Source: Nitrososphaeria archaeon | Lineage (GTDB): Archaea; Thermoproteota; Nitrososphaeria; Geothermarchaeales; JDFR-13 | Assembly: GCA_027078545.1 (NCBI GenBank) | Contig: JALWXN010000004.1 | Location: forward strand, 512,001 to 576,000 | DNA: 64,000 bases | Direction: 5' to 3' | In this document: positions 8,056-39,035 of the stretch, one piece after another | Position numbering within the stretch: the first letter of the stretch is position 1 | How the letters are laid out: each line of letters starts with the position of its first letter | Translations under genes and position numbers: made by a program | Notes under the pieces: generated by a model | Told to the model about the DNA's origin: nothing | What the model saw: the letters and a program-made list of their open reading frames with translations, nothing else | Databases searched by the model: none

Positions 8056-8823
8056 CTATCCATCGAGAATCTTGAAGAGGCCGAAGCCCTGTGGATTCTT
8101 GGAGCCCAGCCCCGCCTCATATACAACCCTTATCAGGCCCAGTGACCCCCTGAGCCTATACAGGCCCTTCCAGCCCTTGATGACCGTCCCCTTGTAATAC
8201 GTCACGACCTCCTTGGGCCTCTTAATAGGAGTGATCTCTAGGTACATCTCGCCGGGGTCGCCGTGGAGTATGCTATACTTCCTCCTAGCATTCATGTTTA
8301 TAAGCTCGGTGAACTCCCTCTCCACCGGGTTGTAGTAATATGTCTTCCTCCTACCGTCGGGTGTCTGGAGGGTTGAATATACGGTGACTGGGCTGAGCAT
8401 CCTAATCCTATACTCAGCATCCTCCCTGTCATCCCCTCCCCATCTACGGTTCTCTACATGGATACTGACAACCCTGTAGCTCGAGCCACCTATCCTGACA
8501 AACCTATTCCTAGTCAGGCCAGTGACAAACTCGTCGATAAAGGTCTTTATAGGCGAGGATATGTAGAGAGACATCTCCCCCACGGGGATACCCACGCCCC
8601 CAGCCCTGTCCCACTTGACACCCCCAAGGATATCCGAGAAGCAGAAGAGCTTAAAACTCCTCCCACCAACCCTGAAGCCCTCCTGGTGGAGGAAACGGCT
8701 CAGCTCGGGGGAGACCACCCGGTAGACCATGCTCTGCACAGCATATCTATAGTGGAGAGGGATGGGATCATCCCCAACAAACACAACCCTAACCCTAACC
8801 ACAGACAGACTAATCACACACAC
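8056..8823 (-). CDS. cas6: Cas6 endoribonuclease
   Basis: LH..G...FKLFCFS and C-terminal GLGSKNPQGFG loop; divergent from the array 1 leader. Confidence 0.95.
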   Translation of the reverse strand: MCVISLSVVRVRVVFVGDDPIPLHYRYAVQSMVYRVVSPELSRFLHQEGFRVGGRSFKLFCFSDILGGVKWDRAGGVGIPVGEMSLYISSPIKTFIDEFVTGLTRNRFVRIGGSSYRVVSIHVENRRWGGDDREDAEYRIRMLSPVTVYSTLQTPDGRRKTYYYNPVEREFTELINMNARRKYSILHGDPGEMYLEITPIKRPKEVVTYYKGTVIKGWKGLYRLRGSLGLIRVVYEAGLGSKNPQGFGLFKILDG

Positions 8824-8956
8824 GAGAAATAAACCACAAAACCTACAAAGCGACCAGGTTTATATACCTCCTCCGCTGGGCTTGGCGGTCGCTACCCAAT
8901 CCTTAAAAAACCACTTAAAACCTAAGAAAACAGAATAAAATTAATACAAACCCAGA
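8824..8956 (+). promoter_or_regulatory. Array 1 leader / divergent cas6 promoter region
   Basis: AT-rich non-coding stretch with TTTATATA and TTAAAA boxes next to the first intact repeat. Confidence 0.75.
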
Positions 8957-9906
8957 GTTCCAGCATACCTACGAGGGTTCGAAACCTACACCAACTACAC
9001 CTGTGAGTATCCACCACTTATAGTTCCAGCATACCTACGAGGGTTCGAAACAATATGGCTTGAAAAATACGGCGATAAAGATGGACTATGTTCCAGCATA
9101 CCTACGAGGGTTCGAAACCACCAAGTAGGATAGCACAGCTGATAAACACTAGGCGTTCCAGCATACCTACGAGGGTTCGAAACAAGTTGTAATAGGAATA
9201 GGTTTGGTGGGTATATAAGTGTTCCAGCATACCTACGAGGGTTCGAAACGTATGTCGTCTAGGAATATCACTGGTATATCCTCGAGGTTCCAGCATACCT
9301 ACGAGGGTTCGAAACGGTAGTTAGCCGTTAGGATGAACGACACCTTCTCATGTTCCAGCATACCTACGAGGGTTCGAAACCACTAGCCACGACCCTTTCT
9401 TCTTCCTCTCTTCCCAGTTCCAGCATACCTACGAGGGTTCGAAACTATCTGTCCTCACCAACATTCTCCATATATTCCAGCGGTTCCAGCATACCTACGA
9501 GGGTTCGAAACCTCCTAGTGGTCGGGGTGCTGGCTGGCCTAGTATACGAGTTCCAGCATACCTACGAGGGTTCGAAACGTGTGAGGACACCGCCCACATA
9601 GTCCCCCAATGTCTCGTTCCAGCATACCTACGAGGGTTCGAAACCTCGACATAGTGATCACCCCAGGTGGACTTTTTCTTGTTCCAGCATACCTACGAGG
9701 GTTCGAAACTGTCAGTGTTTTTCTCGTCTATCTCTAGTAGCTCGTAGTTCCAGCATACCTACGAGGGTTCGAAACTATGGTAAAAACGGGGTGATGAGAT
9801 GCCAGTAGTCGGTTCCAGCATACCTACGAGGGTTCGAAACTGAATATCTCCTTCAGCTTCTCAACGGCCTCGTCGGGGTTCCAGCATACCTATGAGGGTT
9901 CGGAGT
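8957..9906 (+). CRISPR. CRISPR array 1: 15 repeats / 14 spacers (36-38 nt), repeat GTTCCAGCATACCTACGAGGGTTCGAAAC
   Basis: 29-nt direct repeats counted by eye. The last copy (9878-9906) is degenerate, the leader is on the left and the repeat ends in GAAAC, so it is transcribed on +. Confidence 0.98.
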
Positions 9907-10047
9907 GGGTGTTGTCTGTGTTTTGTTCTTGGTATGTTTGTGGTGGTTTGGTTAGATGTGCTTTTGCTATGAGTGAGGTATTTTTGTTTGGATGTTGGGA
10001 TTTATTGGTTGTGTTCTCTTTGGTCTCCACGGTCTATGTTGCTGTGT

Positions 10048-10404
10048 CTACTTGTTGCAGTATGTTTTCCGTATTTTGTAGTCGTCTCTGAGGAATACTC
10101 CGTCTCGGCATATCTCGTCTGCTATTGGGTCTCCCTTTGTGAAGAGCCTCTTAAGCTCCCCGGGGTTTAGGGGTATTACTTCGTAGTTGGGTGGTGGGTC
10201 TATCTTCCTGAGCCTCTCTGGGGGCCTACCCTTGAATACTTCTGATATGAGGACGATGTCGACGTCGCTCCACTCGTTGAAGTCTCCCCTGGCGTATGAC
10301 CCGATCAGGACCGCTGTACATTTGAAGCCTAGGCCCCGTGCCCACTCCATCGCCTCGGCGATGACCCTACTCCTTATTTCCCGCCTCTCCTCAATGATCC
10401 CCAT
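10048..10404 (-). CDS. Minimal nucleotidyltransferase (MNT antitoxin-like)
   Basis: GSYARGD...SDVDIV pol-beta motif; overlaps the HEPN gene. The start at ATG 10404 is inferred. Confidence 0.88.
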   Translation of the reverse strand: MGIIEERREIRSRVIAEAMEWARGLGFKCTAVLIGSYARGDFNEWSDVDIVLISEVFKGRPPERLRKIDPPPNYEVIPLNPGELKRLFTKGDPIADEICRDGVFLRDDYKIRKTYCNK

Positions 10405-10790
10405 GTCTCTTCCACCCACTTGAGGAGTCTCCAGGCCTGTGTCAACGCCTCTCTACAGTCCGCCTCGGTGTAGTAGTCCATCGGCGTTCCCTCGCCCCAG
10501 ACGTCTGGATACCTCGTGGGGATATACAGCTTATCCAGCATCCTAGCAGCCTCAAAAACCTCCGTGGGAACCTCAATGTATTCGGATAATTGTTTAAGCA
10601 ATATAGTTATGCTATGCCCACCCCTCCTAAACCCCAACCCATACATCAACGCCTTTACAGCGAACCCAGCCGCCTGCTGAGCCTTGAAACAAGCCCAGTT
10701 ATAAAACTCATTCTCCAGGTCTGAAGTTGCAGACTCGAGAGTCTCCCTAGCTGTAGAAATCCATCTACTAAACTCATCATTATCCAGCAT
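10374..10790 (-). CDS. HEPN domain protein (HEPN-MNT pair)
   Basis: YNWACFKAQQAA..AVKA...GHSI...LDKLYIPTRYPD archaeal HEPN signature. Confidence 0.9.
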   Translation of the reverse strand: MLDNDEFSRWISTARETLESATSDLENEFYNWACFKAQQAAGFAVKALMYGLGFRRGGHSITILLKQLSEYIEVPTEVFEAARMLDKLYIPTRYPDVWGEGTPMDYYTEADCREALTQAWRLLKWVEETWGSLRRGGK

Positions 10791-10907
10791 ACCACTCTAA
10801 CATACCAACCTACCTATCACAGTAATATACTCAACTGCGCAAGCATTCCACAAAACATCACACCAAGACCTCGACTCACAGACACTCAAGCATCTACCAT
10901 ACACCAC

Positions 10908-13900
10908 ATTCCAACCCTTCCTAGTCTGGTTTTAACCCTCGATGAACTTCCTTATCTTCTCTACGAGATTCTTCTTTCAACCCTTCCTAGTCTGGTTCTA
11001 ACAGTGAAGATGAGTGATAATAGAGTGAAGTATAAGATCCCACTTTCAACCCTTCCTAGTCTGGTTCTAACTCGATCCTTCCTTCCAGCTCTTCGATTCT
11101 TTCGATGAGTTCTTTCAACCCTTCCTAGTCTGGTTCTAACTAAGAGAATAGACATTGGCAGTCATCATATTGACTTGTTGTCTTTCAACCCTTCCTAGTC
11201 TGGTTCTAACTGGATGCTTCTCTGGAGACCCCTCCACAAACCGGGTCTCCTTTCAACCCTTCCTAGTCTGGTTCTAACGGATTACCGACAAACTCACTAC
11301 CTTCCTTTCTCGGCTTCTTTCAACCCTTCCTAGTCTGGTTCTAACATCCTTAGCATGCTCAACATACTCAAGAGCAAGTGCACTTTCAACCCTTCCTAGT
11401 CTGGTTCTAACATACTCCGTAGAGTCCTACCAGGCGGAGTAACAATAGTGCTTTCAACCCTTCCTAGTCTGGTTCTAACTCAAAAGGAACATGAGGCGGT
11501 TGTATATGAGTTGTTTCACTTTCAACCCTTCCTAGTCTGGTTCTAACTTGAAGAAGGGTTAGAAGAGGCGACAATCGACGTATTCCTTTCAACCCTTCCT
11601 AGTCTGGTTCTAACTTTGGGATGTCCAGTGCCAGATGAGGAAAGCATGGGAATCGCCTTTCAACCCTTCCTAGTCTGGTTCTAACCAAGAAAGCATTTTC
11701 GACGCACGATAGTTCTCATGCCCACGCTTTCAACCCTTCCTAGTCTGGTTCTAACGCTTTGACTATTACCATGAAGCGTCGTAAATCCTCTTCTCTTTCA
11801 ACCCTTCCTAGTCTGGTTCTAACGCTCTCTTGACACCTTGGGATGCCTACAAGGACTTGTTAGCTTTCAACCCTTCCTAGTCTGGTTCTAACGTGATCTC
11901 GATCGTGTCTGCGATGATGATGTCTGAGTACTTTCAACCCTTCCTAGTCTGGTTCTAACCCTCGTGGATGGCTGGGTATATCCTGACGGGCAGGGCGTCT
12001 GTACTTTCAACCCTTCCTAGTCTGGTTCTAACACAGAGCCGATCAGGAAGACCGCTAGACCAACCCCGCCACCATCTTTCAACCCTTCCTAGTCTGGTTC
12101 TAACCCAGACCCCGCCCCTACCCAGTCCTCTTAGTTAGTTTACTTTCAACCCTTCCTAGTCTGGTTCTAACTCTTGATGTCAAGGAAAACGAGAGCATAC
12201 TGGTAAATACAATAAACTTTCAACCCTTCCTAGTCTGGTTCTAACCGGTATTTCCCTTCCACCAGTGCCGTTTCGAGTATGTCCTTTCAACCCTTCCTAG
12301 TCTGGTTCTAACTCTGAGCGACCCTCCTGCCGTTGGCTCATGGACATAGCTCCTTTCAACCCTTCCTAGTCTGGTTCTAACTTGTTGAAGCACTCTTGAC
12401 ATAGATTGTTACTATACCCTTCTTTCAACCCTTCCTAGTCTGGTTCTAACCGAACAACCCCCAAAACCCAACCGCCGAAAAAACCAAGAATTCTTTCAAC
12501 CCTTCCTAGTCTGGTTCTAACTCATTACCCTCTTGGAGTCGCTGAATAATGCCAGACCGACTCTTTCAACCCTTCCTAGTCTGGTTCTAACCGAGGTCAT
12601 AACTGAGGTATCGCTCACAGCGGGTGAGATCGCTTTCAACCCTTCCTAGTCTGGTTCTAACGCCAGGGAGGGGGCGACATTCATGTCGATAGTTCATATG
12701 CACCTTTCAACCCTTCCTAGTCTGGTTCTAACTGTCCATAGAAAATTTAACTAGGAAGATAGATAGATTACTACTTTCAACCCTTCCTAGTCTGGTTCTA
12801 ACCTTAGATGACATGATAGAGGAAACTATTCAGCGGTTGGCTTTCAACCCTTCCTAGTCTGGTTCTAACGGGAACTCACTAGGGCGGAAATACCTGTCCA
12901 CCGCATCATGCTTTCAACCCTTCCTAGTCTGGTTCTAACTATCATTTTCCCGACAAATAAGCCGCTTATCATCAATGCTGCTTTCAACCCTTCCTAGTCT
13001 GGTTCTAACAGTCTGATTACATACTTACAGGTATGCTAGTATCGGGGGTTGACTTTCAACCCTTCCTAGTCTGGTTCTAACATACGATTTCGATCGATGT
13101 ATGTCAGTAGCTCGTCCAGTTCTTTCAACCCTTCCTAGTCTGGTTCTAACATCGAATACGGCGTCCGTGATGGTCGGAAACCAGAACGCCCCTTTCAACC
13201 CTTCCTAGTCTGGTTCTAACTTCAGTACCCGCTTCAATTGTTTTGAGTTTCAACAAAACTGACTTTCAACCCTTCCTAGTCTGGTTCTAACGGTACTTAG
13301 AGTGGGGTGGCGAATCTATAAAAACTACAGAACTTTCAACCCTTCCTAGTCTGGTTCTAACTATGGGATTTGAAGGTTGTTTGGAGGGCTGGGTTGGTTT
13401 TACTTTCAACCCTTCCTAGTCTGGTTCTAACTTGGATGCGTAGGTCAGCTACAAAAGGGTTTCATATTTTGACTTTCAACCCTTCCTAGTCTGGTTCTAA
13501 CACTGTTAATCGGCAAGGTTGCTGAAATTTATTGCAATTATAAGCTTTCAACCCTTCCTAGTCTGGTTCTAACACTCATATCGACATCGTGCTGTTGACA
13601 CCAGTCCTTGAACTCTTTCAACCCTTCCTAGTCTGGTTCTAACTAATTAGTCCCCCGAACTCATCTACTATCCAGTAAACGTTTCTTTCAACCCTTCCTA
13701 GTCTGGTTCTAACTTTTAAACTCCTCTCCAGTATTGCCGAGGTCGCTATCCCATCTTTCAACCCTTCCTAGTCTGGTTCTAACATCTAGAAGACCAAGAC
13801 CAGAACCTCCTGTAGAGAAGCCCTTTCAACCCTTCCTAGTCTGGTTCTAACGTCTGCCTCACCACCATGTATTATTTCTACCTGACTTTTGTCTTTCAAC

Positions 13901-16155
13901 CCTTCCTAGTCTGGTTCTAACGATAAGCTCTTCAACGAGTCAAATGTTCCCGAGTAGTTCCTTTCAACCCTTCCTAGTCTGGTTCTAACGCGTGAGACCC
14001 TGCTCCCCTGTCTCCACGACCTGACATATCTCTTTCAACCCTTCCTAGTCTGGTTCTAACACGTTTGCTCGGGCTCTTCCAGCCAGACCCGGCCGTATCG
14101 TCTTTCAACCCTTCCTAGTCTGGTTCTAACGTGATATGATACCTAACACCCGTAGCTGATTTTCAGTTGTCCTTTCAACCCTTCCTAGTCTGGTTCTAAC
14201 CGCCAGTTCCCCACTCGACATCCCGAACCGACCCCCCAGGGGAGCTTTCAACCCTTCCTAGTCTGGTTCTAACAAGATGATGTTGTTGAAACTCGGCAAT
14301 GCGAACTTGTTGTTCTTTCAACCCTTCCTAGTCTGGTTCTAACTACCTTGATTCAGACCTTGTCCTATATACTCGTGTACAAGGCTTTCAACCCTTCCTA
14401 GTCTGGTTCTAACGTAAACTTGTATGAATCTCACGACTACACCACTTGGAATCTTTCAACCCTTCCTAGTCTGGTTCTAACTACCACTTTTCTGGCTACC
14501 TCTCACCTGAAACCTTGTTCCAGCTTTCAACCCTTCCTAGTCTGGTTCTAACACAGTTTCTCAGTTGACATGAGTCTGTAGGTGGCTGACTAGGCTTTCA
14601 ACCCTTCCTAGTCTGGTTCTAACATGACCCCCGGTACGAATATCCTGTATCTACCATTTGGATCCTTTCAACCCTTCCTAGTCTGGTTCTAACTCCCTAT
14701 ATACCTTATATAAGGGTAATAGGGTCTATCATATACTTTCAACCCTTCCTAGTCTGGTTCTAACGAGCTATACTTCTTCAGAAAAATCAACGCAAAGACT
14801 TTCTACCTTTCAACCCTTCCTAGTCTGGTTCTAACCACACTTCTGCGACTAACCGGGAGGAAGAGCCACGAATTAGCTTTCAACCCTTCCTAGTCTGGTT
14901 CTAACTTTAGTCTTCTGGTTCACCCTGATTGTCAGTTGGTAGTCCTTTCAACCCTTCCTAGTCTGGTTCTAACGTTTACGCCTTTATCCCATCCCATTTA
15001 TTCTCACCTAAACCTTTCAACCCTTCCTAGTCTGGTTCTAACTCAACCCAAACAACCCAGGAAAACCCGCACCCCAAAAATCTTTCAACCCTTCCTAGTC
15101 TGGTTCTAACTGGTCAGGGTAGGTGGCGGTGGAGCGAAGGCAGAGGATATCCTTTCAACCCTTCCTAGTCTGGTTCTAACATTGAAATGTACCTAAACCG
15201 TGTAGGCGATAAAGAGAACTCCTTTCAACCCTTCCTAGTCTGGTTCTAACCTTGATTTTGAGGGATCGATATGCTACCAAAAAGATTCAGAATCTTTCAA
15301 CCCTTCCTAGTCTGGTTCTAACTTGGCGGGGGTGATGGGATGAAGTTGCTTAGACTTGGTGTGGTCTCTTTCAACCCTTCCTAGTCTGGTTCTAACTGCT
15401 CGACCTTCAGAGCCTGATCGAGCCTGGGCAGAAGGTGCTTTCAACCCTTCCTAGTCTGGTTCTAACGTAAGACTAAGAACATCACATTGACTGGTCAACA
15501 GTTACTTTCAACCCTTCCTAGTCTGGTTCTAACTGATACTGGGATGGCGAGCGACAACTCAGCCCCGATCTTCCTTTCAACCCTTCCTAGTCTGGTTCTA
15601 ACGTATTCTGGGCGGTGAGCATGGTTTCTAGATAGATCCTACCTTTCAACCCTTCCTAGTCTGGTTCTAACCCAACCTCCTTCTGATAGCATCTTTAACA
15701 AATTCAGCTACTTTCAACCCTTCCTAGTCTGGTTCTAACCTGGTTCTGCTGCTTTCGGGCCTTTTCCTGGGGATGTTCTTCTTTCAACCCTTCCTAGTCT
15801 GGTTCTAACTAACTATGGCGGGATTCCTGACATAACGTGAAGACTGAATCTTTCAACCCTTCCTAGTCTGGTTCTAACATTTCAATCAGTTCAAAAACAC
15901 GATGCGTAAAGTGTACACTTTCAACCCTTCCTAGTCTGGTTCTAACGGGAGCTCGAAGTCCTGCGAAGATGAGTTCCCGACCATCACTTTCAACCCTTCC
16001 TAGTCTGGTTCTAACTCTGAAGACCCGTCACCAGCACCAGGATCAGTACCGCTGCCCTTTCAACCCTTCCTAGTCTGGTTCTAACCAAGGAGGTGGATGG
16101 CCTTCGTCTACTCCTCTACACGAATCCTTTCAACCCTTCCTAGTCTGGTTCTAAC
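10908..16155 (-). CRISPR. CRISPR array 2: about 76 repeats / 75 spacers (about 37-45 nt), repeat GTTAGAACCAGACTAGGAAGGGTTGAAAG
   Basis: CTTTCAACCCTTCCTAGTCTGGTTCTAAC repeats on +. The degenerate copy is at the left end and the leader at the right, so it is transcribed on -. Confidence 0.98.
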
Positions 16156-16298
16156 CCGTGGCTTTTCTTTTGTTTCTACATAGATGTTTTTGGTGTTTCT
16201 ATTATTTAAGTTTTATGTGTGTCAAACCTCTGATCCTGCAGGGGGTTTATAAAGATGTGACGCAGAAAAGTATATAAACCCTTATAAAGGGGGGTCTT
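16156..16298 (-). promoter_or_regulatory. Array 2 leader
   Basis: 143-nt AT-rich segment with TATA-like boxes, near-identical to 37995-38137. Confidence 0.88.
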
Positions 16299-16325
16299 GG
16301 ATCTAGGCTTCTTCTGTCGTTGTCG

Positions 16326-18233: not shown

Positions 18234-18264
18234 TATTGGCGCTAGGCCCGTGATAAATCCGGCT

Positions 18265-25383: not shown

Positions 25384-25521
25384 TCAGGGAGACACCTCCA
25401 CCGGAAACAGGGGCAAACAAAAGACTCCCCCATAAAATATTTAAAAAATATAGGCGGCATCCCCAGCAAAAATTCATGAAATAAAAAGAGTTATATATTT
25501 CATAAACACAACAAAATTACT

Positions 25522-26490: not shown

Positions 26491-27022
26491 AAAGGTTAGA
26501 AGGGTTCTAGAGATCTGTATGGATGCCTATCAGTATATGACTAGCCCTGAAGGATTGGGGAGAGACGAGAGGAATAAAAAAGAAGCTTTGGAAGCGTTCA
26601 GAACCGATGCTAGGAAATACCCAGCATTAATAGCTAAAGAGGGTCTCTTCATCCCCCTACTTGATATGCTTAGAGATAGTGTGGAGAAAAAACGGGATAA
26701 ACCTCATTTCGTTAAGCATAAAAAAGTATATAGCTGGGTAGTGGTTAGGGTACTCTACGAAGTAATAGTAGGGGATGAGCGTTTGTCACAATACGCCAGA
26801 AAGGAACGTATTACAAACGATAACAGAACCTTCGACCAACTTGTTCTGAATGTAGATGGGGTAGTAGAATGGATAATAAGATTGGCACCGGGAGGAGACT
26901 CGATCGAAACGAACTTCCGAAATGAACACATGGCTAAGCAGCTAGTTGAATCCCTGCTCATCGTGAAGAAGTTTGCCGAGGCTATGATACCCCCCAAAGA
27001 GACTGGAGGCGGTGGATCCTAG
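26480..27022 (+). CDS. cmr5: Type III-B small subunit Cmr5
   Basis: FRT.ARKYPALI...GL and KKFAEA motifs; lies between cmr4 and cmr6. Confidence 0.85.
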   Translation: MDAEKVRRVLEICMDAYQYMTSPEGLGRDERNKKEALEAFRTDARKYPALIAKEGLFIPLLDMLRDSVEKKRDKPHFVKHKKVYSWVVVRVLYEVIVGDERLSQYARKERITNDNRTFDQLVLNVDGVVEWIIRLAPGGDSIETNFRNEHMAKQLVESLLIVKKFAEAMIPPKETGGGGS

Positions 27023-27925
27023 ATGGAGAATCTCATCTCGTTTACCTACCCGAAAGATAGAAGGGAGCTCGTTAAGTTCTATAGGGAAAAGGAATATAAG
27101 TCCTATTTCGCTGAAAGAGTTGCGCTTGCTAGTGCTGATTTAGTAAATACAGATGGCAATACTTTGGATGAGCCGCTTAACAGTGTGGTAACAAGCTATC
27201 TGAGGGTAATACATGACTCCCTTAGTGCTTCAGGAATCACGGTCTGGAGTATTAAGATGGAGACCGTCTCTAACTTGGCGTTAAATCTTTCAGGGGGCGT
27301 GTTCCATACAATCCTAAATCTAGGTGTTTCGTTGGATCCAATTCTAGGTATCCCGTTTATCCCATCGACGTCTATAAAGGGTGCTTGGCGTCATGCAGTA
27401 TGGATAATCCTTAGGAATCTATCACCAGATAATGCCGATACCCTGATAGAAGATCTCTTTGACAATATACCAGTGGTCGTGAAGGTATTCGATGCATACC
27501 CTACATATATCAACTCGGATGGTGGATACCTAGTTATTCCAGATATCCTGAACCCCCACTACACAAGTACTACTAGGAACGAGTTGGATGTAAATCCTAC
27601 GCCGATAATACATCTAACTATACCGAGGGGTATAGTGTTCGAAACAGTAGTGGGTATAGACGTAAAAGCTCTCATGAGGTCATTCGACGAGTCAACTGCA
27701 GAGGATGAGGAGGAGAGGCGTAGGATAAGGGATAGGAAGGAGAGGTGGAAAGACCTTATGAATAAACTGGCCGAGCGTCCAGAGGGGTCACGGGACAGGG
27801 TCAACAACATCGAGAAGACGATCCTGGTAATCCTGAAGGCCGGCCTCATGTTGGCTGGCAAGTTGGGTATAGGGGCAAAGACGTCGGTTGGCTACTCCCG
27901 CCTAGAGGTGGAGATAAATGAGTGA
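27023..27925 (+). CDS. cmr6: Type III-B Cmr6
   Basis: GIPFIPSTSIKGA, FDAYP, DILNPHY, NPTPI and GIGAKTSVGY. Confidence 0.93.
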   Translation: MENLISFTYPKDRRELVKFYREKEYKSYFAERVALASADLVNTDGNTLDEPLNSVVTSYLRVIHDSLSASGITVWSIKMETVSNLALNLSGGVFHTILNLGVSLDPILGIPFIPSTSIKGAWRHAVWIILRNLSPDNADTLIEDLFDNIPVVVKVFDAYPTYINSDGGYLVIPDILNPHYTSTTRNELDVNPTPIIHLTIPRGIVFETVVGIDVKALMRSFDESTAEDEEERRRIRDRKERWKDLMNKLAERPEGSRDRVNNIEKTILVILKAGLMLAGKLGIGAKTSVGYSRLEVEINE

Positions 27926-30900: not shown

Positions 30901-31802
30901 TACTAGCACTGCTACCACTCGTTAAGCTGGATATCAAGGATGATGATGGTAAGAAGATAGTCTGTATGAGGGAGAACTTCCTGGAAACTATGGAGAATGT
31001 TAGGTCCTTCTATAGTCTCGGTGATGGGGAGGGCTTCGCTGTAGTAAAGAGTAGTAGGAATGGTGGAACTATAGTGGAGTATCCAGTCCCTATGCTCTAT
31101 GGTCTGGGGAGGAGCCAGGTACTTTTGATGGCCCATTATAGGGAGCCTATGTCCAAGGCTATTCAGCTGGCGCATGAACTTCTGGATAGGGTGGCTAAGG
31201 ATGGCTCTAGGTGGAGGCTTGAGTGTAGCGAGGGAGCCATCTACGAGAGGGACGGTCTTGTAATAACATCATATTCAGGGGGAGTCGTCCGTGCCCCCAC
31301 ATCTCCCGTGCTTCAATGTATGCTGATAAGTGGCTGTGAGTACGAGCCTGTCCACAAGTATCTCAGGAGTCTCTATAGCTACATCTATGGAGATAAGATC
31401 ATCAGCACGGAGGTAGCTGAAGAAGGGGAATGTAAGAGAAACCTTCTTTCACACTCATTCCTAAGGGATTATGTCCAGGATATGGGTCTAATGGGGTTGT
31501 CAGGCAAGTTGAATCCGGAGATACCAAGGAAAACCATCGTGAGAATCATAGGTAGGAATCTTAGAATAGGGGGTATGGAGGAGGCTGATGGAGCTCTCAA
31601 TCTTGCCCAGGAGATTTACAGGGAGATCTTCGACATCCTGAGATGTATCTATCATAGTGACAGGCTGCTGGAAGAGCTTATACTGGAGCAGATGATGATA
31701 ACCGGGGAATACGTAGAGTATGAATTGACAGCAAGTGAGATGGCGGTATCCATGCTCCTCAAAATGTCCGTGGCCACGAGGGGTGTGGGGGGCAATGACT
31801 AG
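27918..31802 (+). CDS. cas10: Type III-B Cas10/Cmr2
   Basis: LHDP (HD), PADTR.P.HTIFDH, GIQ.FI..SRK.RDLWASS, CxxC/CPVC Zn sites, DADRIGK and YAGGDD. Confidence 0.96.
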   Translation: MSEGGEPNRFDVLAEFFDQKAWAYLHDPLAKAYFIYAPDKKHEDEAENAFSNIWGEVNIDDPFKKAINQADILGSMLDRRWTGIFHSEAIESFRYVRADDFRLIINIFDPDKKKHLSRPYDDQSFVDIHNEVVKDLAKLLSKEAFLAAKPDLCIEDAHQVTEVIRKIIRYHFLYFYAEPIWIAHGGEPLPADTRVPNHTIFDHISAAATVYNLITRVGDSDDQEGGYLVRIDLGGIQQFISFSRKVRDLWASSYILSMMVWAAIKPLIFVFGPDIVLVPTMRLNPVYHHQLHIWIRDIYRDEFLKDRIYSLDERVWIYVFLDLYKKSLLSVLPPIEALEQQQDETLKPPRYALIPAIITLALPPPSVLREGLELLLEISGCDDITCDDESEEEHRGAGILSRSMVKVIRKKLDELRRSGDSAGPEFVESLITSLIEAVWKDVYEDVMGLCTEGLNDDGIRELLRSYLAKLIVPNNSSVDVDLSSLKVDELRLIYNYIKSVKDTPPVIIRVGAAKLDKNLRKILDMAIGSGEDGGDGLAHAVAQSILELMNDRISRRLENKHLVRDTPFAYRDLSRLTEEIFSKRRNGEDIGLGVVVEEVKEVNEGQKKNTVIGVNPNRGRGYDYCTMCSILPAIIHYHREVEYDSPYISKGEKLCPVCLFKRLIGVDTESLKKFVKIVFSLKGEDPPRLEVLSTIDVANRYLGEKISKILEEYQQLTNNGSASDIDVLLSKFTKCSNRDWICENVQQAPGRPVSFEEIDMPLGIVTRGEEEFDEDMYKKVKNAWETLFREKLGIDFPNGITIYYGIFITDADRIGKIVSGELFRARPFKKRDPELYGYEDEVRFYVDYIRKSLNIGDPSARRFFNILLCSVENVLLSLRPWDKENRSLGITYAKDCVIRRLIARGAIPKDKLDDERYMREIEKLVYSVLIFFYRPVIRRDVDNGFEIGFIFRPRVVPSPSYLVSISRSLMISLLRDVYNVEKSKGIVIYAGGDDLLALLPLVKLDIKDDDGKKIVCMRENFLETMENVRSFYSLGDGEGFAVVKSSRNGGTIVEYPVPMLYGLGRSQVLLMAHYREPMSKAIQLAHELLDRVAKDGSRWRLECSEGAIYERDGLVITSYSGGVVRAPTSPVLQCMLISGCEYEPVHKYLRSLYSYIYGDKIISTEVAEEGECKRNLLSHSFLRDYVQDMGLMGLSGKLNPEIPRKTIVRIIGRNLRIGGMEEADGALNLAQEIYREIFDILRCIYHSDRLLEELILEQMMITGEYVEYELTASEMAVSMLLKMSVATRGVGGND

Positions 31803-32979
31803 TATAAAGAGTCCCAAAACCGTGGTGGTTAGGCCCCTGGGTAGGGTCATGTTCAGAGGACCTGGAGAGTTTGATATGTCTAGTGCTGGTGTAAAGGCAT
31901 ACGCATCTTCAATGGCATACCCACTGCCCACGGCAATCGCATCGATATTAATCGGTGGTAAGTTCCGCGATGGCTCCAGACCACAAGACTATCCGTGGGG
32001 TGACTGGGTAGGGGAGTATAAGGTGTTGATGGATAAGCTCGGCATACCTACTCCTAGAGGACCGTTTATAAGGATCTCTGTAGATGGAGGCCACAACTAC
32101 TACGTTGTATATGACTATAAGCAGCAGTTCCTTCTAGGAATAGGTGAGAAGATAGAGATCCCCCTTAGGTTCATGGTCAATACACTGTTGGATGGTAGGC
32201 CGGGGGGACTTAGGATATCTCCTGAAAACGGTGGGTCTCCATACCCCAAGTTAATCCCAGCCTCGCGAGCTATCAGGGAGATCGTGGGGATAAACCTTGA
32301 GGGTGGGAAGACGACTGGTGGGAGGGGTGAGGGGAGGAAACGTGTATATACCGCAGAGTTCCTCTTCCCAGAATCATTAGTCCCCGATGTTGGGGAGAAA
32401 TCGGTTAACCAGGTGACCGTCGAATATAGATACCTAGTCCCACCTGAGATAGGGAGTCTCGACCCAATAGTAACCAGGATAGGTGGTGAGGGTGGTCAGG
32501 CCAGGGTCGAGGTATCAAGTGGGGCCGTTCTAGAAATAAATCTGTCTAGCTGGCGTGGCGATTGGCTAGGGCTCTATGTACTATCACCCATACTCATCCC
32601 AACAGACGAGGATATGCACAGTTACCTGCAAGGTGAAATAGAGGGGAGGCTAGACTCATCAGAGAGAGCTCTTCATGAGCTGTATGTGGTGGGGGAGACA
32701 GCCCTGCTGAACGCAGGCTTCGCACTAAGGAGAGACGATAAACATAGATCTAGGAGGCCCATATACCGGGCATTGAAGCCCGGGTCGCTAATATATTTCC
32801 GTCTAGACTCTCCAGGTGATAAAAAGGGAGGGAAGCAGAAAATAGATGAGGAGAACGTTGAAAAGTTAATATGGGAGGGTATTGGAATGGGCCGAGAGGT
32901 AGGCTTCGGAAGCATAATACCCTTCAACTATGAAATGGAGACCCACGAGGAGGTGTTAGAGACATGGGAAATAACATAG
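31795..32979 (+). CDS. cmr3: Type III-B Cmr3
   Basis: RPLG.VMFRGPGEF...YPLPTAIA, IGGEG, PGS.IY and GIG...EVGFG. The start at ATG 31795 is inferred. Confidence 0.88.
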   Translation: MTSIKSPKTVVVRPLGRVMFRGPGEFDMSSAGVKAYASSMAYPLPTAIASILIGGKFRDGSRPQDYPWGDWVGEYKVLMDKLGIPTPRGPFIRISVDGGHNYYVVYDYKQQFLLGIGEKIEIPLRFMVNTLLDGRPGGLRISPENGGSPYPKLIPASRAIREIVGINLEGGKTTGGRGEGRKRVYTAEFLFPESLVPDVGEKSVNQVTVEYRYLVPPEIGSLDPIVTRIGGEGGQARVEVSSGAVLEINLSSWRGDWLGLYVLSPILIPTDEDMHSYLQGEIEGRLDSSERALHELYVVGETALLNAGFALRRDDKHRSRRPIYRALKPGSLIYFRLDSPGDKKGGKQKIDEENVEKLIWEGIGMGREVGFGSIIPFNYEMETHEEVLETWEIT

Positions 32980-34460
32980 ATAGAAAGCTAGCCGAAGAGA
33001 TCCACAACAAACATAAGATAATGGGGATAGAGCTAGACGTCCTATTCCCAATGACCGGGGGATATATAGGAAAGCCCTATGACGACCTCCTAGGTCTCCA
33101 TGTACCAGAACCAAAAGATTTTAAATATCTATGGAGGTGGTGGGCGAGAATATTCATAAATGATGATCCAGACAACAATCTTCAGGATTTAGATAACAGA
33201 GTGGCGAAGGTTCTTGGTGGTACTTCGAATGATACTGGAAAGTCGCTATTTGATTTAGGGGTTCACGTCGTTGATGTATATCCTCCAAACATTCAGTATT
33301 TACCACCAGACTCCCTTTCAGTAGCCGTTAACAAATTGGCACATGAGGCATTTCAAGAAATTAATAACCTAGTGAGGATCGATATAATCCATCATGTTAG
33401 CCTATCAATCGGTGATCCGTCAAAAGGTGATATAAATGTCTCGATTTATAGGGACAGAAATAACAAAGAAGATGAATTTACCCTTATTGAGTCTTATGAT
33501 GAACTTTTTTCGAGTTATTTAAGTGGGGTAGATTACAAAGATGAAATAGCTAACTTTATGCAAGCAATTCCAAGGGTGAAACTCATAACTAGAGATAGAA
33601 TTGATAACGTCAGAACCCTTAGGAGTGATGAGTTTAAAGATAGTTTGAGAAAATCTTTGGTTAAGATTCTATCCCACCTATTCATTCCGCAAAGGATCAA
33701 GCTCAAACTACTTGTATATAGAAGTGATGCATCACGTGAAATAAGTGGTTATCATGCCGACTATCTAAAGTACCTCCTCGCATCCTTAATCCTCGGATCC
33801 ATAGGCTATATGAGCAGTAGGGGGATGGGGAGTATCGTTCCACCAAGAGATCCTAGCAACATAATCATTAATGCTGACGGACTTGAAGATGATATCAGGA
33901 ATTCTTACGGGGAACTACTGGATATACTCTTTTCGGGAGCTAGTAATATTGATATAAGCAGATTAAGGGAGGCTCTCGGATTAAGGACACCACTTCGCAT
34001 AAATAACATGCCTATGGTTCCTATCTTACATCCAAATTACTCATTCGTGATAGTCAAGAGATGTACCTCTAGTCAAGATGAGTTGTCCATACTAAGTAAG
34101 ATTAGTCAAACTATCAGCGGTAATAATAGTTTGTGCAATAGAGTCAATAGTAACACCCGCTCTCTAAACTGGGCTCTATGTAAATTAATGATGGGTGCTC
34201 CCAGGAAAAGCATAAGTTCTAAATATCCACGTGGTCTAAGGGGACATGAAGATTGTATTCCAAGAAGGAGGAGGTCGGCTATATCCTACAAAATGCTAGC
34301 ATATCCAAATATTAAAACGATTCTTACAACCGGATTCCTTTCAAGAGACATAGTAAATAGAGGTAGGCGTAGCAGATGTTGGAATAACTCCAGCTTGATG
34401 AGAGAATTGGACACGCTTTTCAAAAGTATCGGCCAAGAGATATCTAGAATCAGTTGTTAG
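32964..34460 (+). CDS. cmr1: Type III-B Cmr1 (divergent)
   Basis: FPMTGG...KYLWRWWAR, LGG, GSIGYMSSRGMGS Gly loop and RR.S; last gene of the cmr operon. Confidence 0.78.
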   Translation: MGNNIDRKLAEEIHNKHKIMGIELDVLFPMTGGYIGKPYDDLLGLHVPEPKDFKYLWRWWARIFINDDPDNNLQDLDNRVAKVLGGTSNDTGKSLFDLGVHVVDVYPPNIQYLPPDSLSVAVNKLAHEAFQEINNLVRIDIIHHVSLSIGDPSKGDINVSIYRDRNNKEDEFTLIESYDELFSSYLSGVDYKDEIANFMQAIPRVKLITRDRIDNVRTLRSDEFKDSLRKSLVKILSHLFIPQRIKLKLLVYRSDASREISGYHADYLKYLLASLILGSIGYMSSRGMGSIVPPRDPSNIIINADGLEDDIRNSYGELLDILFSGASNIDISRLREALGLRTPLRINNMPMVPILHPNYSFVIVKRCTSSQDELSILSKISQTISGNNSLCNRVNSNTRSLNWALCKLMMGAPRKSISSKYPRGLRGHEDCIPRRRRSAISYKMLAYPNIKTILTTGFLSRDIVNRGRRSRCWNNSSLMRELDTLFKSIGQEISRISC

Positions 34461-34546: not shown

Positions 34547-35821
34547 CTAGATGTTACTCAACCATTTCCATAGTGGTGTGTGTTGTATTGTTTGGTTTTT
34601 GTGTTGGGTTGTGGTTTCTAGGTTCCATGTTATGACTCGGAGGTTTTTGCATTGAAGGTGCTCCCCTATCTTGACTAGGTTGTTGAGTTCTCTTCGTTCT
34701 ATCTCGTCGTGGCTGTTTGCGTAGGTTACCTGTATGAGCTCCTTGGTCTTGGTGCCTTCCCTGAGTATGAAGTCTACTTCTCTTCCCCTGTTGTCTAGGT
34801 AGTGGTATATCTGTAGGAGTGGCTCTTTATTCGTCCTCCTGAGTAGTTCTAGGTAGACTGTGTTCTCCATCTTCTTCCCGATGTCCCTCTCTATCTGGAG
34901 TGGTTTTGCGAGGCCTAGGTCTGCTATGTATACCTTCTTGGGCCACATCCTCCTCTGGTATACGCTTGGGGAGTAGCGGTCTAGGAAGAATACGCTTAGT
35001 GTGTCTCCCAATGCGTCTAGGTAGCTGTAGACGGTCTTCTTGGATAGCCCTGTCCTCTGCCCAATATAGTTCACTATCTTCTTGATGCTTAGAAGGTTAG
35101 AGTAGTTCTGGAATATGAATTCGAAGAGGAGCCTGGCGAGCTCGAAGCTCCGGAGCCTATGCCTCTCTATAAAGTCTCTGAGTAGGATCTCGTCGTAGTA
35201 GGTTCTCAGTATCTTCTCCCTGGTGAAGCGGTCGCTGGCCAGGACTACCTCTGGGTAGCCCCCTATCTCGAGGTACTCGTCTAGGAGCCTGAGTATGTAT
35301 CCCCTCTCCTCAAAGGTCGGGTACATGTCTGGGCTGGAGCCCCTGGCACTGAGGAATTCTCTGAAGCTGAAGGGTAGGAGTAGGTAGGATACCGCCCTCC
35401 CCCTTAGCTGTGTAGCCAGCTCCCTGCTCAGCAGCTTGGATGAGGAGCCAGTCACGAATATCCTATAGCCATAGTCGAGAAGCGTCCTCAGGAGGGCCTC
35501 CCAACCCCGAGCCTCCTGGACCTCGTCGAGGAGGAGGGTGTCAGGCCTAGTCCCAGTGACCTCTGTATAGATCTCCACCGCCTCGAAGAACTCCCTAGCC
35601 CCTACCCCCCTGAAGAAGACGTTCTCAAAGTTTAGATACATAGCCCTGGGGTATCGATGGGTCAGCAGGTAATACATGTAGAACGTCTTACCCGACCTAC
35701 GCGGCCCAACAATAGCGACGATCTTACCCGGAATAGGCCTGGCGTCAAGCTCGCGGAGGACCCCCTTGAACACCGGTCTCCTCCTAAAATAGTCTATAAC
35801 CACGTCTCTATCCAGAGGCAT
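34547..35821 (-). CDS. AAA+ ATPase (COG1373/DUF4143-type)
   Basis: GPRRSGKT, LDEVQ, TGSSS, LRGR, PFSFREF, GGYP, KVYIADLG, EN.V and EVDF..IQV. Confidence 0.92.
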   Translation of the reverse strand: MPLDRDVVIDYFRRRPVFKGVLRELDARPIPGKIVAIVGPRRSGKTFYMYYLLTHRYPRAMYLNFENVFFRGVGAREFFEAVEIYTEVTGTRPDTLLLDEVQEARGWEALLRTLLDYGYRIFVTGSSSKLLSRELATQLRGRAVSYLLLPFSFREFLSARGSSPDMYPTFEERGYILRLLDEYLEIGGYPEVVLASDRFTREKILRTYYDEILLRDFIERHRLRSFELARLLFEFIFQNYSNLLSIKKIVNYIGQRTGLSKKTVYSYLDALGDTLSVFFLDRYSPSVYQRRMWPKKVYIADLGLAKPLQIERDIGKKMENTVYLELLRRTNKEPLLQIYHYLDNRGREVDFILREGTKTKELIQVTYANSHDEIERRELNNLVKIGEHLQCKNLRVITWNLETTTQHKNQTIQHTPLWKWLSNI

Positions 35822-35839
35822 AGTGAATAAAATATGTCT

Positions 35840-35901
35840 AAACCCGTTAAAAAGTTCCCTAAGGAAACCAAAAACCCGTTAAAAAGTTCCCTAGGGAAAC
35901 C
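35840..35901. repeat. Tandem 30-bp direct repeat upstream of the ATPase, containing a TATA-like box and a palindrome
   Basis: AAACCCGTTAAAAAGTTCCCTA(A/G)GGAAACC at 35840-35869 and 35872-35901. Confidence 0.85.
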
Positions 35902-36208
35902 TACCAACCAAATAATAAAAAAGGCCCAACCACACCATACTAGGCCATACATCCCTCAATCAGGCCCTCAGCTCCTCCTCAAGAAGTTGGTCGGCCTGCT
36001 CCTCCACCACGTCAAATGTAAGGTCCTCCCTACCGTATCTACCTCTAAGCCTAGTTAGTGGATCCTCCTCAGCACCCGTCATACCCAATGTATTGATACT
36101 AAAAACCCCTACAAATATCAACAAAGCCTCCACGACATTCAACACACATGTATCCATTACGTAGCCATTACAATAAACCAGTCTAACACTAACATCAGAA
36201 AGAACACA

Positions 36209-37994
36209 CCTCCAACCCTTCCTAGTCTGGTTCTAACACCAAGGAGGACTACGAGGTTCTGACAGGGCTCTTCATCTTTCAACCCTTCCTAGTCTGGTTT
36301 TAACCGTTTCCTCGAGGCTGAGAGGGTCCCTCAGGAGGTGAAGGGGAATGGAATGCTTTCAACCCTTCCTAGTCTGGTTTTAACACGTGAAGCACGACGT
36401 CCCCCTGCTTGGCGCTCGTAAGATCGAGCTTTCAACCCTTCCTAGTCTGGTTTTAACGAAAACGTTTTACGCAATGTATTCTACAAGTAATATGTTTCTC
36501 TTTCAACCCTTCCTAGTCTGGTTTTAACTACTCAGAAACATCAAAGAGCTAATAGAAATATATTGTGCTTTCAACCCTTCCTAGTCTGGTTTTAACTCAA
36601 ACGCCATACTCTATCACCTCCTCTAGAACTCACACTGCTTTCAACCCTTCCTAGTCTGGTTTTAACTATAAGCCGATACTGAAACTGTTTATGCCGTATC
36701 TAGCGCTTTCAACCCTTCCTAGTCTGGTTTTAACAAACTGGTATGGCGATTACTGATGTCATTAGACTTGCAAGCTTTCAACCCTTCCTAGTCTGGTTTT
36801 AACATAGTAGGCTCAAGTACTTCTCGGTCTTGTGGCTTGGCATCACCTTTCAACCCTTCCTAGTCTGGTTTTAACATCGTCAAGACAGCAAGACCATCAC
36901 CCCCGCCACTAGAACGCTTTCAACCCTTCCTAGTCTGGTTTTAACTGGTATGATGGCCTGTCTCAGGAGTAGCTTCATCATGCTGACTTTCAACCCTTCC
37001 TAGTCTGGTTTTAACCGTCCGGCTTGAGCTTGTGGAACGGGACTACTACACAACTTTCAACCCTTCCTAGTCTGGTTTTAACATCGTCAAGACAGCAAGA
37101 CCATCACCCCCGCCACTAGAACGCTTTCAACCCTTCCTAGTCTGGTTTTAACAAGTTGTTCGACGATTGGAAAAGTGTTTTTCATCTCGTTTACTTTCAA
37201 CCCTTCCTAGTCTGGTTTTAACCTTCTCTGGGGTGGTGGCTTCCTGCCGCAGAGTATTGTTGTTCCCTTTCAACCCTTCCTAGTCTGGTTTTAACCATCC
37301 TGGTACAGGGAGCAGGACAGTAAACATAGATCTTACTTTCAACCCTTCCTAGTCTGGTTTTAACACGGGAAAGTCTACACTAGCACTACGCATGATGAAA
37401 TATGTCCTTTCAACCCTTCCTAGTCTGGTTTTAACACAGATACCGATTCCCGCCAATGTTGTTGTCCGTTTTATTCACTTTCAACCCTTCCTAGTCTGGT
37501 TTTAACACTACGTAAAACTGATGACGAAGACGGGATAGAGGATGAAGCTTTCAACCCTTCCTAGTCTGGTTTTAACTTCATCATGCGTAGTGCTAGTGTA
37601 GACTTTCCCGTTCCCTTCTTTCAACCCTTCCTAGTCTGGTTTTAACATGGGTGTTCTGTCAGGCTTATAAGCCTGAACCGATTTCTCTTTCAACCCTTCC
37701 TAGTCTGGTTTTAACGTATCTCCCGCCGAATATCTGGGTGGAGGTAGAAGTCCTTGACTTTCAACCCTTCCTAGTCTGGTTTTAACTGGATGATGAAGGG
37801 AAGGTGGTGAAGACCATCCCGAAGAGCTTTCAACCCTTCCTAGTCTGGTTTTAACATGACGGTAGCGGAAACCCGACAGGGGTCGCAGTCTACATACTTT
37901 CAACCCTTCCTAGTCTGGTTTTAACATATATATGATGTGCTCCACATCTTCAGGTTGTAGGGAGCCTTTCAACCCTTCCTAGTCTGGTTTTAAC
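36209..37994 (-). CRISPR. CRISPR array 3: 26 repeats / 25 spacers, repeat GTTAAAACCAGACTAGGAAGGGTTGAAAG
   Basis: CTTTCAACCCTTCCTAGTCTGGTTTTAAC repeats on +, one base different from array 2; degenerate copy on the left, leader on the right. Confidence 0.98.
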
Positions 37995-38137
37995 CCGTGG
38001 GTTTTCTTCTGTTTCTATATAGACGTTTTTGGTGTTTCTATTATTTAAGTTTTATGTGTGTCAAACCTTTGATCCTGCAGGGGGTTTATAAAGATGTGAC
38101 GCAGAAAAGTATATAAAGCTTTATAAAGGGGGGTCTT
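37995..38137 (-). promoter_or_regulatory. Array 3 leader (divergent from the second cas6)
   Basis: Near-identical to 16156-16298. Confidence 0.88.
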
Positions 38138-38168
38138 TGGGGCTGGTTCTGTTTTATGAATTTTTGAT

Positions 38169-39035
38169 GTGATGGTTTTTGATGTGAGGTTGCTTCTCCG
38201 TCTTAGGGCATTGGGAGATTTTGATTATGATCTGGAGTATTACCCCCGTGTCCAGGGCTTCCTCTATGATCTGCTTAGGGGGAGTGACTATGACTTTCTG
38301 CATGACGCGATGGGTGATAAGTTCTTCTGCTTCTCCAACATCTTCCCCGTCCCCCTTGATAGGGATACTGGGGATAAGCAGGTGGCTAGCCACGAAGATG
38401 CTTCTAATGGAGAGGAGGAGGCGTCTGTCGATGCGTATCAGATTAGGAGGGGTGATGTTAAGTATCTAATCATATCGACTCCGGATAAGAGGCTTTTCCA
38501 AGCCTTTGAAGACGGGCTTAGGGAGCATAGGGATAGCCAGGGGGGTGTGGCCCGCTTCGGCAATATGGTCTTCCAGGTACTGGACTGGAAGCGTGTCAAT
38601 GTCAGGGTTCCTGACCATCCATTCATCATCAGGTCGGCCACCCCGGTTGTCTATAGGATATATAGGCCGAGATATGGGGAGCTCGGGATAAGGAGTGATA
38701 AGGAGTATGTATATTGGCGGGAGGAGTATGGATTGGACACCCTCCTCAGGCTTATTAGGGAGGATATATCCACTAAGCACCTCATCTTCTATGGCCGCCC
38801 ACCGTATACGCTTGACTTCATCAAGAGGATAAGGTTTGTGAAGTCGGTTAGCGCCCACTTCACGATGAACCGTAGGAGGGTCCAGGTCGTCGGGTCGATA
38901 ATAGAGATCCATATCGACGATCCACTAGACAGGGAGGCGAAGAGGGTCGTCCGCTTCTTCCTGGATACTGGGCTTGGTGAGAGGAATCCCTTGGGCTTCG
39001 GCTTCATTAATATAATTCGTCGAAAGAATCGTTGA
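38169..39035 (+). CDS. cas6: Cas6 endoribonuclease
   Basis: QGFLY.LL....Y..LHD..G.KFFCFSNIFP and GLGERNPLGFGF. Confidence 0.95.
   Translation: MMVFDVRLLLRLRALGDFDYDLEYYPRVQGFLYDLLRGSDYDFLHDAMGDKFFCFSNIFPVPLDRDTGDKQVASHEDASNGEEEASVDAYQIRRGDVKYLIISTPDKRLFQAFEDGLREHRDSQGGVARFGNMVFQVLDWKRVNVRVPDHPFIIRSATPVVYRIYRPRYGELGIRSDKEYVYWREEYGLDTLLRLIREDISTKHLIFYGRPPYTLDFIKRIRFVKSVSAHFTMNRRRVQVVGSIIEIHIDDPLDREAKRVVRFFLDTGLGERNPLGFGFINIIRRKNR

Follow-up and report, generated by a model that had tools for sequence, protein, structure and literature searches.

Short tracts of opposite strand composition, rich in A and C to the left and in G and T to the right on the + strand, flank CRISPR arrays and other loci in the genome of the Nitrososphaeria archaeon under study (G000). 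The bias depends on position, is present at silent sites, has a short length scale, does not follow the direction of genes or arrays, matches the leading-strand signature of this genome and is associated with variable sites. The reading that we tentatively favor is that these loci repeatedly initiate short recombination or repair synthesis, which runs outward and has the tracts as its mutational footprint. We found no description of such a local flip in the literature searched, which left out most subscription journals.

Keto skew around the arrays and the cmr cassette

We scored keto skew, (G+T-A-C)/N, on the + strand of the window, that is, the whole stretch of 64,000 nucleotides that was analysed. 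An earlier note on this DNA had described a flip across all three CRISPR arrays and the cmr cassette, and all eight of its tracts were recovered. Keto on the left was -0.43 at 8760-8956 (array 1), -0.30 at 10560-10907 (array 2), -0.33 at 35780-36208 (array 3) and -0.32 at 25320-25560 (cmr cassette), and on the right it was +0.56 at 9907-10100, +0.34 at 16156-16600, +0.35 at 37995-38260 and +0.31 at 34500-34900, respectively; the 99th percentile of |keto| in 200-nt windows of the whole genome is 0.31. A segment scan of the window returned exactly eight tracts, alternately A/C- and G/T-rich and the same as those of the earlier note (Table 1), and the same scan of shuffled DNA returned none. An explanation by chance, by the composition of codons or amino acids, or by an assembly artefact is for all practical purposes already refuted, because the flip recurs in G002 and L341, which were assembled independently, and in genomes of a single contig; the bias also lies at silent sites with open frames.

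Table 1. Skewed tracts, CRISPR arrays and the cmr cassette in the window.
Feature	Position	Strand	Keto
A/C-rich tract, array 1 left (leader side)	8769..8956	.	-0.48
CRISPR array 1, 15 repeats	8957..9907	+	
G/T-rich tract, array 1 right (trailer side)	9907..10224	.	+0.45
A/C-rich tract, array 2 left (trailer side)	10617..10907	.	-0.38
CRISPR array 2, 76 repeats	10908..16156	-	
G/T-rich tract, array 2 right (leader and 3' end of S9 peptidase gene)	16158..16683	.	+0.33
A/C-rich tract, cmr cassette left edge	25279..25609	.	-0.31
Type III-B cmr cassette	25522..34460	+	
G/T-rich tract, cmr cassette right, in 3' end of AAA/DUF4143 ATPase gene	34573..34942	.	+0.36
A/C-rich tract, array 3 left (trailer side)	35760..36208	.	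-0.33
CRISPR array 3, 26 repeats	36209..37995	-	
G/T-rich tract, array 3 right (leader and 5' end of second cas6)	37995..38332	.	+0.33

The array orientations had been given correctly: array 1 has its degenerate end repeat on the right, and arrays 2 and 3, with a shared leader on their right side, have theirs on the left. In the final repeat of array 1, C>T and A>G changes are seen on +, the spacers of array 2 show no skew by position in the array, and no structured RNA in the window matched Rfam. Sense-strand keto at 4-fold sites was -0.74 in the distal codons of the nucleotidyltransferase gene (Pfam), whose 3' end is entered by the trailer-side tract of array 1, +0.47/+0.40 in the HEPN gene, whose 5' end is entered by the left tract of array 2, and -0.71 near the end of the S9 peptidase gene. 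In the AAA/DUF4143 ATPase gene it ranged from -0.78 to -1.0 across the final 150 or more codons and was +0.58 in the first 50; the 5' end of the ATPase gene is reached by the left tract of array 3. From the leader-side tract of array 1, a weaker bias extends into the 5' part of cas6 (+0.38/+0.28, first 100 codons). An end bias like that of the S9 peptidase gene is absent in seven of eight homologous loci. The right tract of array 3 is replicated in a third lineage, L341, with outward values of +0.38/+0.28 and 4-fold values of +0.52/+0.46 in its cas6. The left tract of the cmr cassette spans the 5' end of a Csx14-like gene, intergenic DNA and the first cmr4 codons, extending ~150 nt into cmr4. 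The cassette itself (cmr4, cmr5-like, cmr6, cas10/cmr2, cmr3-like and a weak RAMP gene) is lower in GC, was not found in the congeners searched and shows no clear silent-site trend in its interior.

The outward residual at 4-fold silent sites was +0.58 ± 0.05 at 0-300 nt, +0.21 ± 0.04 at 300-600 nt and ~0 beyond. This silent-site bias is the main effect. The cas6 N-terminus, described as V/C-rich, is V-rich but not C-rich, and the K/T/N/Q-rich stretch at the peptidase C-terminus exists but is mostly an extension absent from homologues. The bias is not confined to the non-coding leader or trailer, and it also occurs at non-CRISPR loci. As the note had stated, the flip is independent of array strand and of leader or trailer side. 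Silent-site bias is equal in leader-side and trailer-side genes, convergent and divergent genes are alike, and both sides of + and - arrays are biased, so that the bias does not follow annotated transcript direction. Metagene profiles of ordinary gene starts and ends and of conserved promoters are flat, as are conserved gaps, and an origin in promoters, terminators or gene direction was therefore rejected; the position-dependent, strand-asymmetric mutational footprint that had been proposed is supported.

Selection could in principle maintain the polar tracts as cis elements, such as terminators, insulators or recombinase-loading DNA. U-rich terminators and a G/T-rich preference of recombinases are known, the tracts are kept between sister species, and their divergence is not clearly raised. 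We consider this quite improbable, however, since the bias is graded with distance and affects third codon positions whichever strand is coding, no motif common to the loci was seen (only leaders align between loci), and decaying end repeats change in the same direction.

Distribution of the flip and possible outward transcription

In the whole genome, the flip flanks 13 of 14 array ends, and the earlier description of it as CRISPR-linked did not hold, because the same flip occurs at the 16S gene, a tRNA and variable islands. It is strongest at the 16S gene, where it reaches ~0.9 kb compared with ~0.5 kb elsewhere. We defined variable sites by alignment alone, as non-CRISPR indel sites of at least 500 nt between G000 and its sister species (G002). 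These 11 sites, a small set of which two lie near other flips, gave a mean of +0.24, with 20 of 22 sides positive (resampling P<1e-5). Conserved intergenic gaps, low-GC gaps included, gave means of 0.00 to 0.05; like ordinary gene ends, they lack the flip. AT-richness alone was rejected, as conserved gaps with GC below 0.42 give ~0.03 (rho -0.16, P 0.07). The non-array flips contain no hidden degenerate repeats. The correspondence with variability has exceptions on both sides: the variable sites at C4 777.7k and 691.9k show little flip, and flips occur at conserved sites at 787k, 124.5k and 338k. Between two strains 99.3% identical, ~59 of 86 SNPs are gathered in a single block that extends from the flip centre at 787 kb to the array, which anecdotally resembles an imported tract.

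The main rival, possible but doubtful, is outward untranslated transcription over a few hundred bases on both sides of arrays, AT-rich islands and rRNA/tRNA genes. Read-through and cryptic or divergent promoters would send RNA polymerase outward, and up to the point of termination R-loops would leave the non-template (outward) strand open to deamination, oxidation and depurination. The polarity fits, premature termination would give the ~0.5 kb scale, and Sulfolobales arrays contain both sense and antisense cryptic promoters (PMC10883916). Raw flanks are more biased on the trailer (~0.55) than on the leader side (~0.34) and downstream than upstream of the 16S gene, the flip is also present beside rRNA operons of several other genomes, in L041 one is centred on a tRNA-Gly, and the purine-to-T changes look like single-strand damage. 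Nevertheless, the unlinked 23S gene shows no flip, 23 of 28 tRNAs show little or none (pooled, +0.11 upstream and -0.03 downstream), and the flat profiles of ordinary genes and the agreement of leader-side with trailer-side genes at silent sites also argue against transcription. Judged by gene type rather than transcript level, the flip does not scale with expression. It resembles transcription-associated mutational asymmetry in the gain of G+T on the exposed strand and in its strength beside rRNA genes and arrays, but differs in being symmetric on both sides and missing from ordinary genes, 23S and most tRNAs.

The flip was found again in two sister lineages and in about 8 of 17 other Thermoproteota genomes; among five loci added from a separate assembly collection, those of L337 and L338 are identical to G002 DNA. 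High temperature, which the earlier note had offered as an explanation, is insufficient, because some genomes with reverse gyrase, among them G085, G141 and G161, have little or no flip, and reverse gyrase as the determinant was rejected since it occurs in flip and non-flip genomes alike. A G061 array has the reversed polarity out to 2.5 kb, whereas the G061 16S gene is normal; the reversal is known from this one locus.

Substitution signature and replication polarity

We estimated ratios of complementary substitution rates under a reversible approximation from the single genome pair G000 and G002. For C>T/A>G/G>T/A>T/A>C they were 1.55/1.53/1.37/2.52/1.96 in variable-site flanks, 2.8/3.4/3.8/8.3/1.9 in array flanks and 1.93/1.62/1.24/2.53/1.65 on the leading strand, and ~1 in the neutral zone; within these limits, the flip signature matches the leading-strand signature of this genome. 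For polarising, G003 was mostly too distant for DNA alignment, G004 stood at ~64% aa and metagenome homologues near 50%. On the outward strand the proposed excess of C>T and A>G was seen, but pure deamination is not supported, as the asymmetries of A>T and G>T equal or exceed those of C>T and A>G. Decayed end repeats carry 22 A/C>G/T changes on the outward strand against 1 in reverse (19 against 0 without the shared variant position), several of them in the outermost 5 nt, where they may be truncations. Loss of repair genes was rejected for NucS, present in G000 and G002, and EndoV, present in 22 of 22 genomes.

Silent divergence relative to background was 0.88 (corrected ratio; 0.78-0.98) at variable sites and 1.26x (CI 0.86-1.88) at arrays, so a hypermutation hotspot is not supported. 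By a two-state estimate, added damage from outward transcription predicts ~1.5-1.8x. Divergence that is not clearly raised would be expected if synthesis polarity replaces a symmetric process rather than adding damage.

At 4-fold sites the replichores are very strongly biased, with T-vs-A skew from ~-0.5 to +0.6 and a switch near the 16S gene. Mapped Sulfolobus origins run from A+C to G+T (PMC3000693), as do the tracts on the + strand. The flip therefore shares its polarity with the amino/keto (MK) disparity switch of archaeal origins in Z-curve analyses (PMC3000693, PMC4009838), and its substitution signature matches that of the leading strand of this genome, but it spans ~0.5 kb where origins span hundreds of kb, and its centres are arrays, 16S and variable islands. 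That the loci are weak true origins launching full forks is highly improbable. The 16S region does have a long-range step of +0.17 to +0.22, among the largest upward ones, and around it G000-G002 identity is high, with the lowest values at 760-800 kb. The arrays and the cmr cassette, however, have no such step (-0.06 to +0.07; null sd 0.076), no ORB-like matches lie near arrays or 16S, and the cdc6 genes at C4 150 kb and 284 kb show no flip, by which a cdc6-linked origin was rejected. A weak origin may apply at the 16S locus alone. A dif-like dyad at C4 332650 was rejected, as it lies inside a gene.

Fork barriers would yield the same polarity, if protein-coated arrays or islands and busy rRNA genes stalled forks from either side and helicase uncoupling exposed the leading-strand template just ahead of the barrier. 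Sulfolobales arrays are coated by Cbp1-Cren7 chromatin (PMC10883916), and polarised replichores often have the larger residual on the side facing the incoming fork. A ceiling effect predicts that side asymmetry too, the strongest case, 16S, sits where forks appear to diverge by the long-range step, and no rate increase is clear, making fork barriers improbable.

Resected or break-induced single-stranded DNA gives rise to strand-coordinated mutation clusters, in which, as in the flip, the mutated strand switches across the centre with C>T and purine-to-T changes. Damage to 3' overhangs, however, predicts G/T on the left and A/C on the right, the opposite of G000 and matched only by the G061 array. 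The nascent strand of a migrating bubble predicts the polarity of the flip; the flip has no clear rate increase. Of the break, repair or synthesis-initiation hotspots suggested earlier, a start of synthesis or repair fits best, while plain break and resection is disfavored because the inward strand would be exposed, giving opposite polarity.

Proposed outward synthesis and its implications

We infer that DNA synthesis rather than transcription made the tracts and that recombination or repair primed it; damage to the exposed strand or polymerase error would be the source of the changes. The tracts would then be a mutational footprint and not functional elements. Short synthesis would run 5'->3' away from population-variable loci (CRISPR arrays, defence and other islands, tRNA integration sites and the 16S gene) on both sides, probably as D-loop-primed recombination synthesis, gap refill or strand displacement. 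Within ~0.5 kb (~0.9 kb at 16S), it would set which strand acts as 'leading', so that neutral sites would move toward the equilibrium composition of this genome's leading strand, losing A and C and gaining T. This reading is weakened because 23S has no flip (23S genes, too, carry insertions in surveyed genomes), 16S has no insertion in this assembly (it carries them in some surveyed genomes), conserved sites can have a flip and variable sites can have little, and the G061 array is reversed.

Human CpG islands show a bidirectional strand asymmetry in intergenic stretches of up to 1 Mb, ascribed to origins (Polak and Arndt 2009, PMC2817419). It is likewise mirror-image, radiates from a locus class and has replication, transcription and recombination as candidate causes, but the archaeal flip is sub-kb, far stronger, and visible in composition and protein tails. 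A purine/pyrimidine (RY) asymmetry within CRISPR repeats and at the leader junction is also a compositional skew at arrays (bioRxiv 10.64898/2026.07.20.739571); keto skew and trailer flanks are unmentioned there.

Silent-site T-vs-A skews reach ~0.6 across replichores, and local ones are stronger, so that keto skew scored at silent sites picks up signals to which GC skew is blind. Depending on where a gene lies in the genome, the footprint also shifts its codons and any unconstrained protein tail, and analyses of codon usage or selection in cas and adjoining genes can be led astray. The footprint provides a sequence-only marker of variable or recombining loci, emptied ones included (e.g. C4 1123.3 kb), and suggests where breaks, nascent DNA or R-loops could be mapped in cultured Thermoproteota that have the flip, such as Pyrobaculum, Thermofilum or Aeropyrum. 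It is conceivable, if rather unlikely, that in many hot-environment Thermoproteota base composition marks where recombination- or repair-primed synthesis starts, with a reach of 0.5-1 kb, and that in this lineage events at 16S mature into the main, Cdc6-distant replication start. If so, the footprint would tell by its sign, which is reversed at one G061 array, which strand is exposed in each pathway.

Strand-bias flips at arrays and variable loci

All eight tracts described in the earlier note around the three CRISPR arrays and the cmr cassette are present, with keto skew at about the 99th percentile of the genome or beyond, and shuffled DNA yielded none; the eight-tract pattern is real. The 1.24-Mb assembly (G000) is archaeal, probably from a thermophilic Thermoproteota lineage; it encodes reverse gyrase and carries its 16S and 23S genes at unlinked sites. 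Its contigs C2, C3 and C5–C11 are small and deviate in GC, and C3 holds part of a second 23S gene, probably contamination. Two type I cas modules also lie within the window (C4:512001-576000), and the features are collected in the table.

Features of the window, of contig JALWXN010000004.1 (C4) and of loci in other genomes
Feature	Location	Strand	Remark
CRISPR array 1	window 8957-9907	+	
CRISPR array 2	window 10908-16156	-	
CRISPR array 3	window 36209-37995	-	
Type III-B cmr cassette	window 25522-34460		
Leaders, ~140 nt	window 16156-16298, 37995-38137		common to all five arrays of the same repeat type (87-95%); likewise in G002 and L341
MNT-HEPN toxin-antitoxin-type pair (nucleotidyltransferase + HEPN gene)	window 10048-10790		between arrays 1 and 2
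Short acidic low-complexity ORF	window 60230-60421	-	9-nt periodicity
Decayed stretch	G000 C4:496100-497600		adjoins a 5-repeat array on its left side; flips very sharply near 497130; apparent gene remnant
One-sided G/T tract	G000 C4:357977-358818		no visible core; collinear in G002
Gene in that tract	C4:357977-358818	-	216 aa, K/T/H/N/P-rich throughout
Antitoxin/PIN gene pair (third lineage)	L341:11257-11908		after cas2; extra relative to the window; further variable site
Reversed array (G061)	L160:7500-17500		G/T left, A/C right, ~3 kb per side; cas1 sense fourfold keto +0.81 (background sd 0.18)
Broad A/C-to-G/T flip (G052)	L142:3500-7500		that genome's arrays show none
SNP block	L339:9850-12500		from flip centre to array

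Third codon positions bore the pattern out: after subtraction of gene-strand and regional effects, fourfold sites beside arrays were enriched in G+T on the outward strand, by +0.58 at 0–300 nt and by +0.21 at 300–600 nt, the excess falling to about 0 farther away, and genes adjoining gaps of <250 nt had fourfold bias near zero at either end. The bias does enter coding sequence, mainly at silent sites, while the visible amino-acid effect is largely limited to free tails. End bias was absent at seven of eight loci homologous to the peptidase gene; in the remaining one the gene end abuts a tRNA-Gly, which is a flip centre in its own right. This ties the bias to position and not to the gene.

Genome-wide, 13 of 14 array ends were positive (mean +0.39), and the sole exception adjoins a decayed stretch carrying its own flip. 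The proposed CRISPR-specific link did not hold, as flips also occur at the 16S gene and at non-CRISPR variable sites. The 16S gene is the strongest centre (+0.9 across ~900 nt downstream), and no flip marks the 23S gene or most of the tRNAs. Outward untranslated transcription fits the length scale, and cryptic promoters are known in arrays (PMC10883916), but the flipless 23S gene speaks against this explanation, which we regard as unlikely; the footprint also differs from ordinary transcription bias in failing both the direction test and the expression test.

About 800 kb of the syntenic sister genome G002 (identity 83–94%; its contig 2 matches WAKB01000002.1 from assembly GCA_015523545.1 exactly) was aligned, and variable sites were defined as ≥500 nt in one genome that is missing or replaced in the other. 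The flanks of 11 non-CRISPR variable sites averaged +0.24 (20 of 22 sides positive) against 0.00–0.05 for conserved gaps (P<1e-5, resampling). Low GC alone was rejected as the cause, since low-GC conserved gaps remain near 0.03. The cmr cassette, not found among the congeners searched, belongs to the variable-site class. Some emptied sites still hold a tract (for example at 1123.3 kb). Variability and flips do not coincide everywhere: flat flanks occur at a few variable sites, and conserved sites host a few of the flips.

A leading-strand-like substitution signature

Silent-site replichore bias in G000 is large, with T-versus-A skew of about -0.5 over 0–60 kb; the skew jumps near the 16S gene, stays at +0.3 to +0.6 up to 420 kb and then declines gradually, crossing zero near 700–790 kb. 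Such bias on C4 is unusually strong for an archaeon, and its single upward switch lies near 194–196 kb, at the 16S gene and not at cdc6 (150 kb, 284 kb). Across the polarised arms, silent divergence between G000 and G002 is 0.26–0.30, and it reaches 0.44 at 640–800 kb. Mapped Sulfolobus origins show the polarity A+C then G+T (PMC3000693).

Near arrays, the outward strand has fourfold-site composition of about A 0.06, C 0.17, G 0.29 and T 0.48, shifted as on the leading strand but more strongly; its pyrimidine excess requires transversions. Complementary-rate ratios, in a reversible approximation, are nearly equal to those of the leading strand at variable sites and larger at arrays. Directly polarised changes in decayed end repeats, some possibly truncations, ran 22 to G/T against 1 in reverse. 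The strand that reads outward resembles a leading strand in its behaviour. An origin-type strand switch works in the same mode, but the arrays have no cdc6 or ORB, and a long-range skew step, present at the 16S region, was looked for at arrays and not found; that they are true replication origins is very improbable. Fork barriers, another replication-related source, are improbable too, though a little less so. Silent divergence relative to background was 0.88x (0.78–0.98) at variable sites and 1.26x (0.86–1.88) at arrays; being roughly flat, it indicates that the footprint alters direction more than rate. Selection as the source of the bias we consider slightly more doubtful than fork barriers.

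Outward synthesis as a possible source

The earlier note attributed the footprint to outward-strand C>T and A>G changes, as expected under repeated single-strandedness at high temperature, and suggested that the loci may be hotspots of breakage, repair or synthesis initiation. As stated, the break-and-deamination version misfits, because a break with 5' resection would expose the inward strand and thus predict the opposite polarity. The polarity would fit if exposure or errors fell on the nascent strand in a migrating D-loop, or alternatively on a strand that is refilled or displaced, or on an incoming donor's 3' tail. We tentatively favour short outward recombination or repair synthesis as the source, because it unites the replication-like signature, short range, indifference to transcript direction, variable-site link and roughly flat rate. 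At L339, comparison with a 99.3% identical strain gave 86 SNPs, about 59 of them concentrated in a single block, which resembles an imported recombination tract and, from one strain pair, is suggestive only.

Breadth and precedent

The flip recurs in relatives, namely in G002, in the one visible flank of G004 and beside the array-3 homologue of the third lineage; a contig-end array in G003 has none. We surveyed silent sites within 600 nt of cas1-linked arrays in 17 other genomes, kin among which are not independent. Five (G121, G118, G076, G111, G159) gave +0.36 to +0.52; G097, G153 and G180 gave weaker values, yet their raw flanks flip; in eight, the silent-site flip was weak or absent. Flanks of rRNA operons flip in largely the same genomes as arrays. 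The G061 array, a single locus, is reversed (-0.45 to -0.55, reaching 2.5 kb), its 16S flip has normal polarity, and a 400-kb sample of that genome showed no replichore skew.

Our literature search found no account of the local flip pattern. A 2026 archaeal skew survey, which mentions neither keto skew nor CRISPR, concluded that there is little strand-specific mutation in archaea (PMC12999951), and the closest published analogue is the mirror asymmetry around human CpG islands (PMC2817419). The present analysis adds controls, a connection with variable sites, the leading-strand match, a multi-genome survey and the reversed case.
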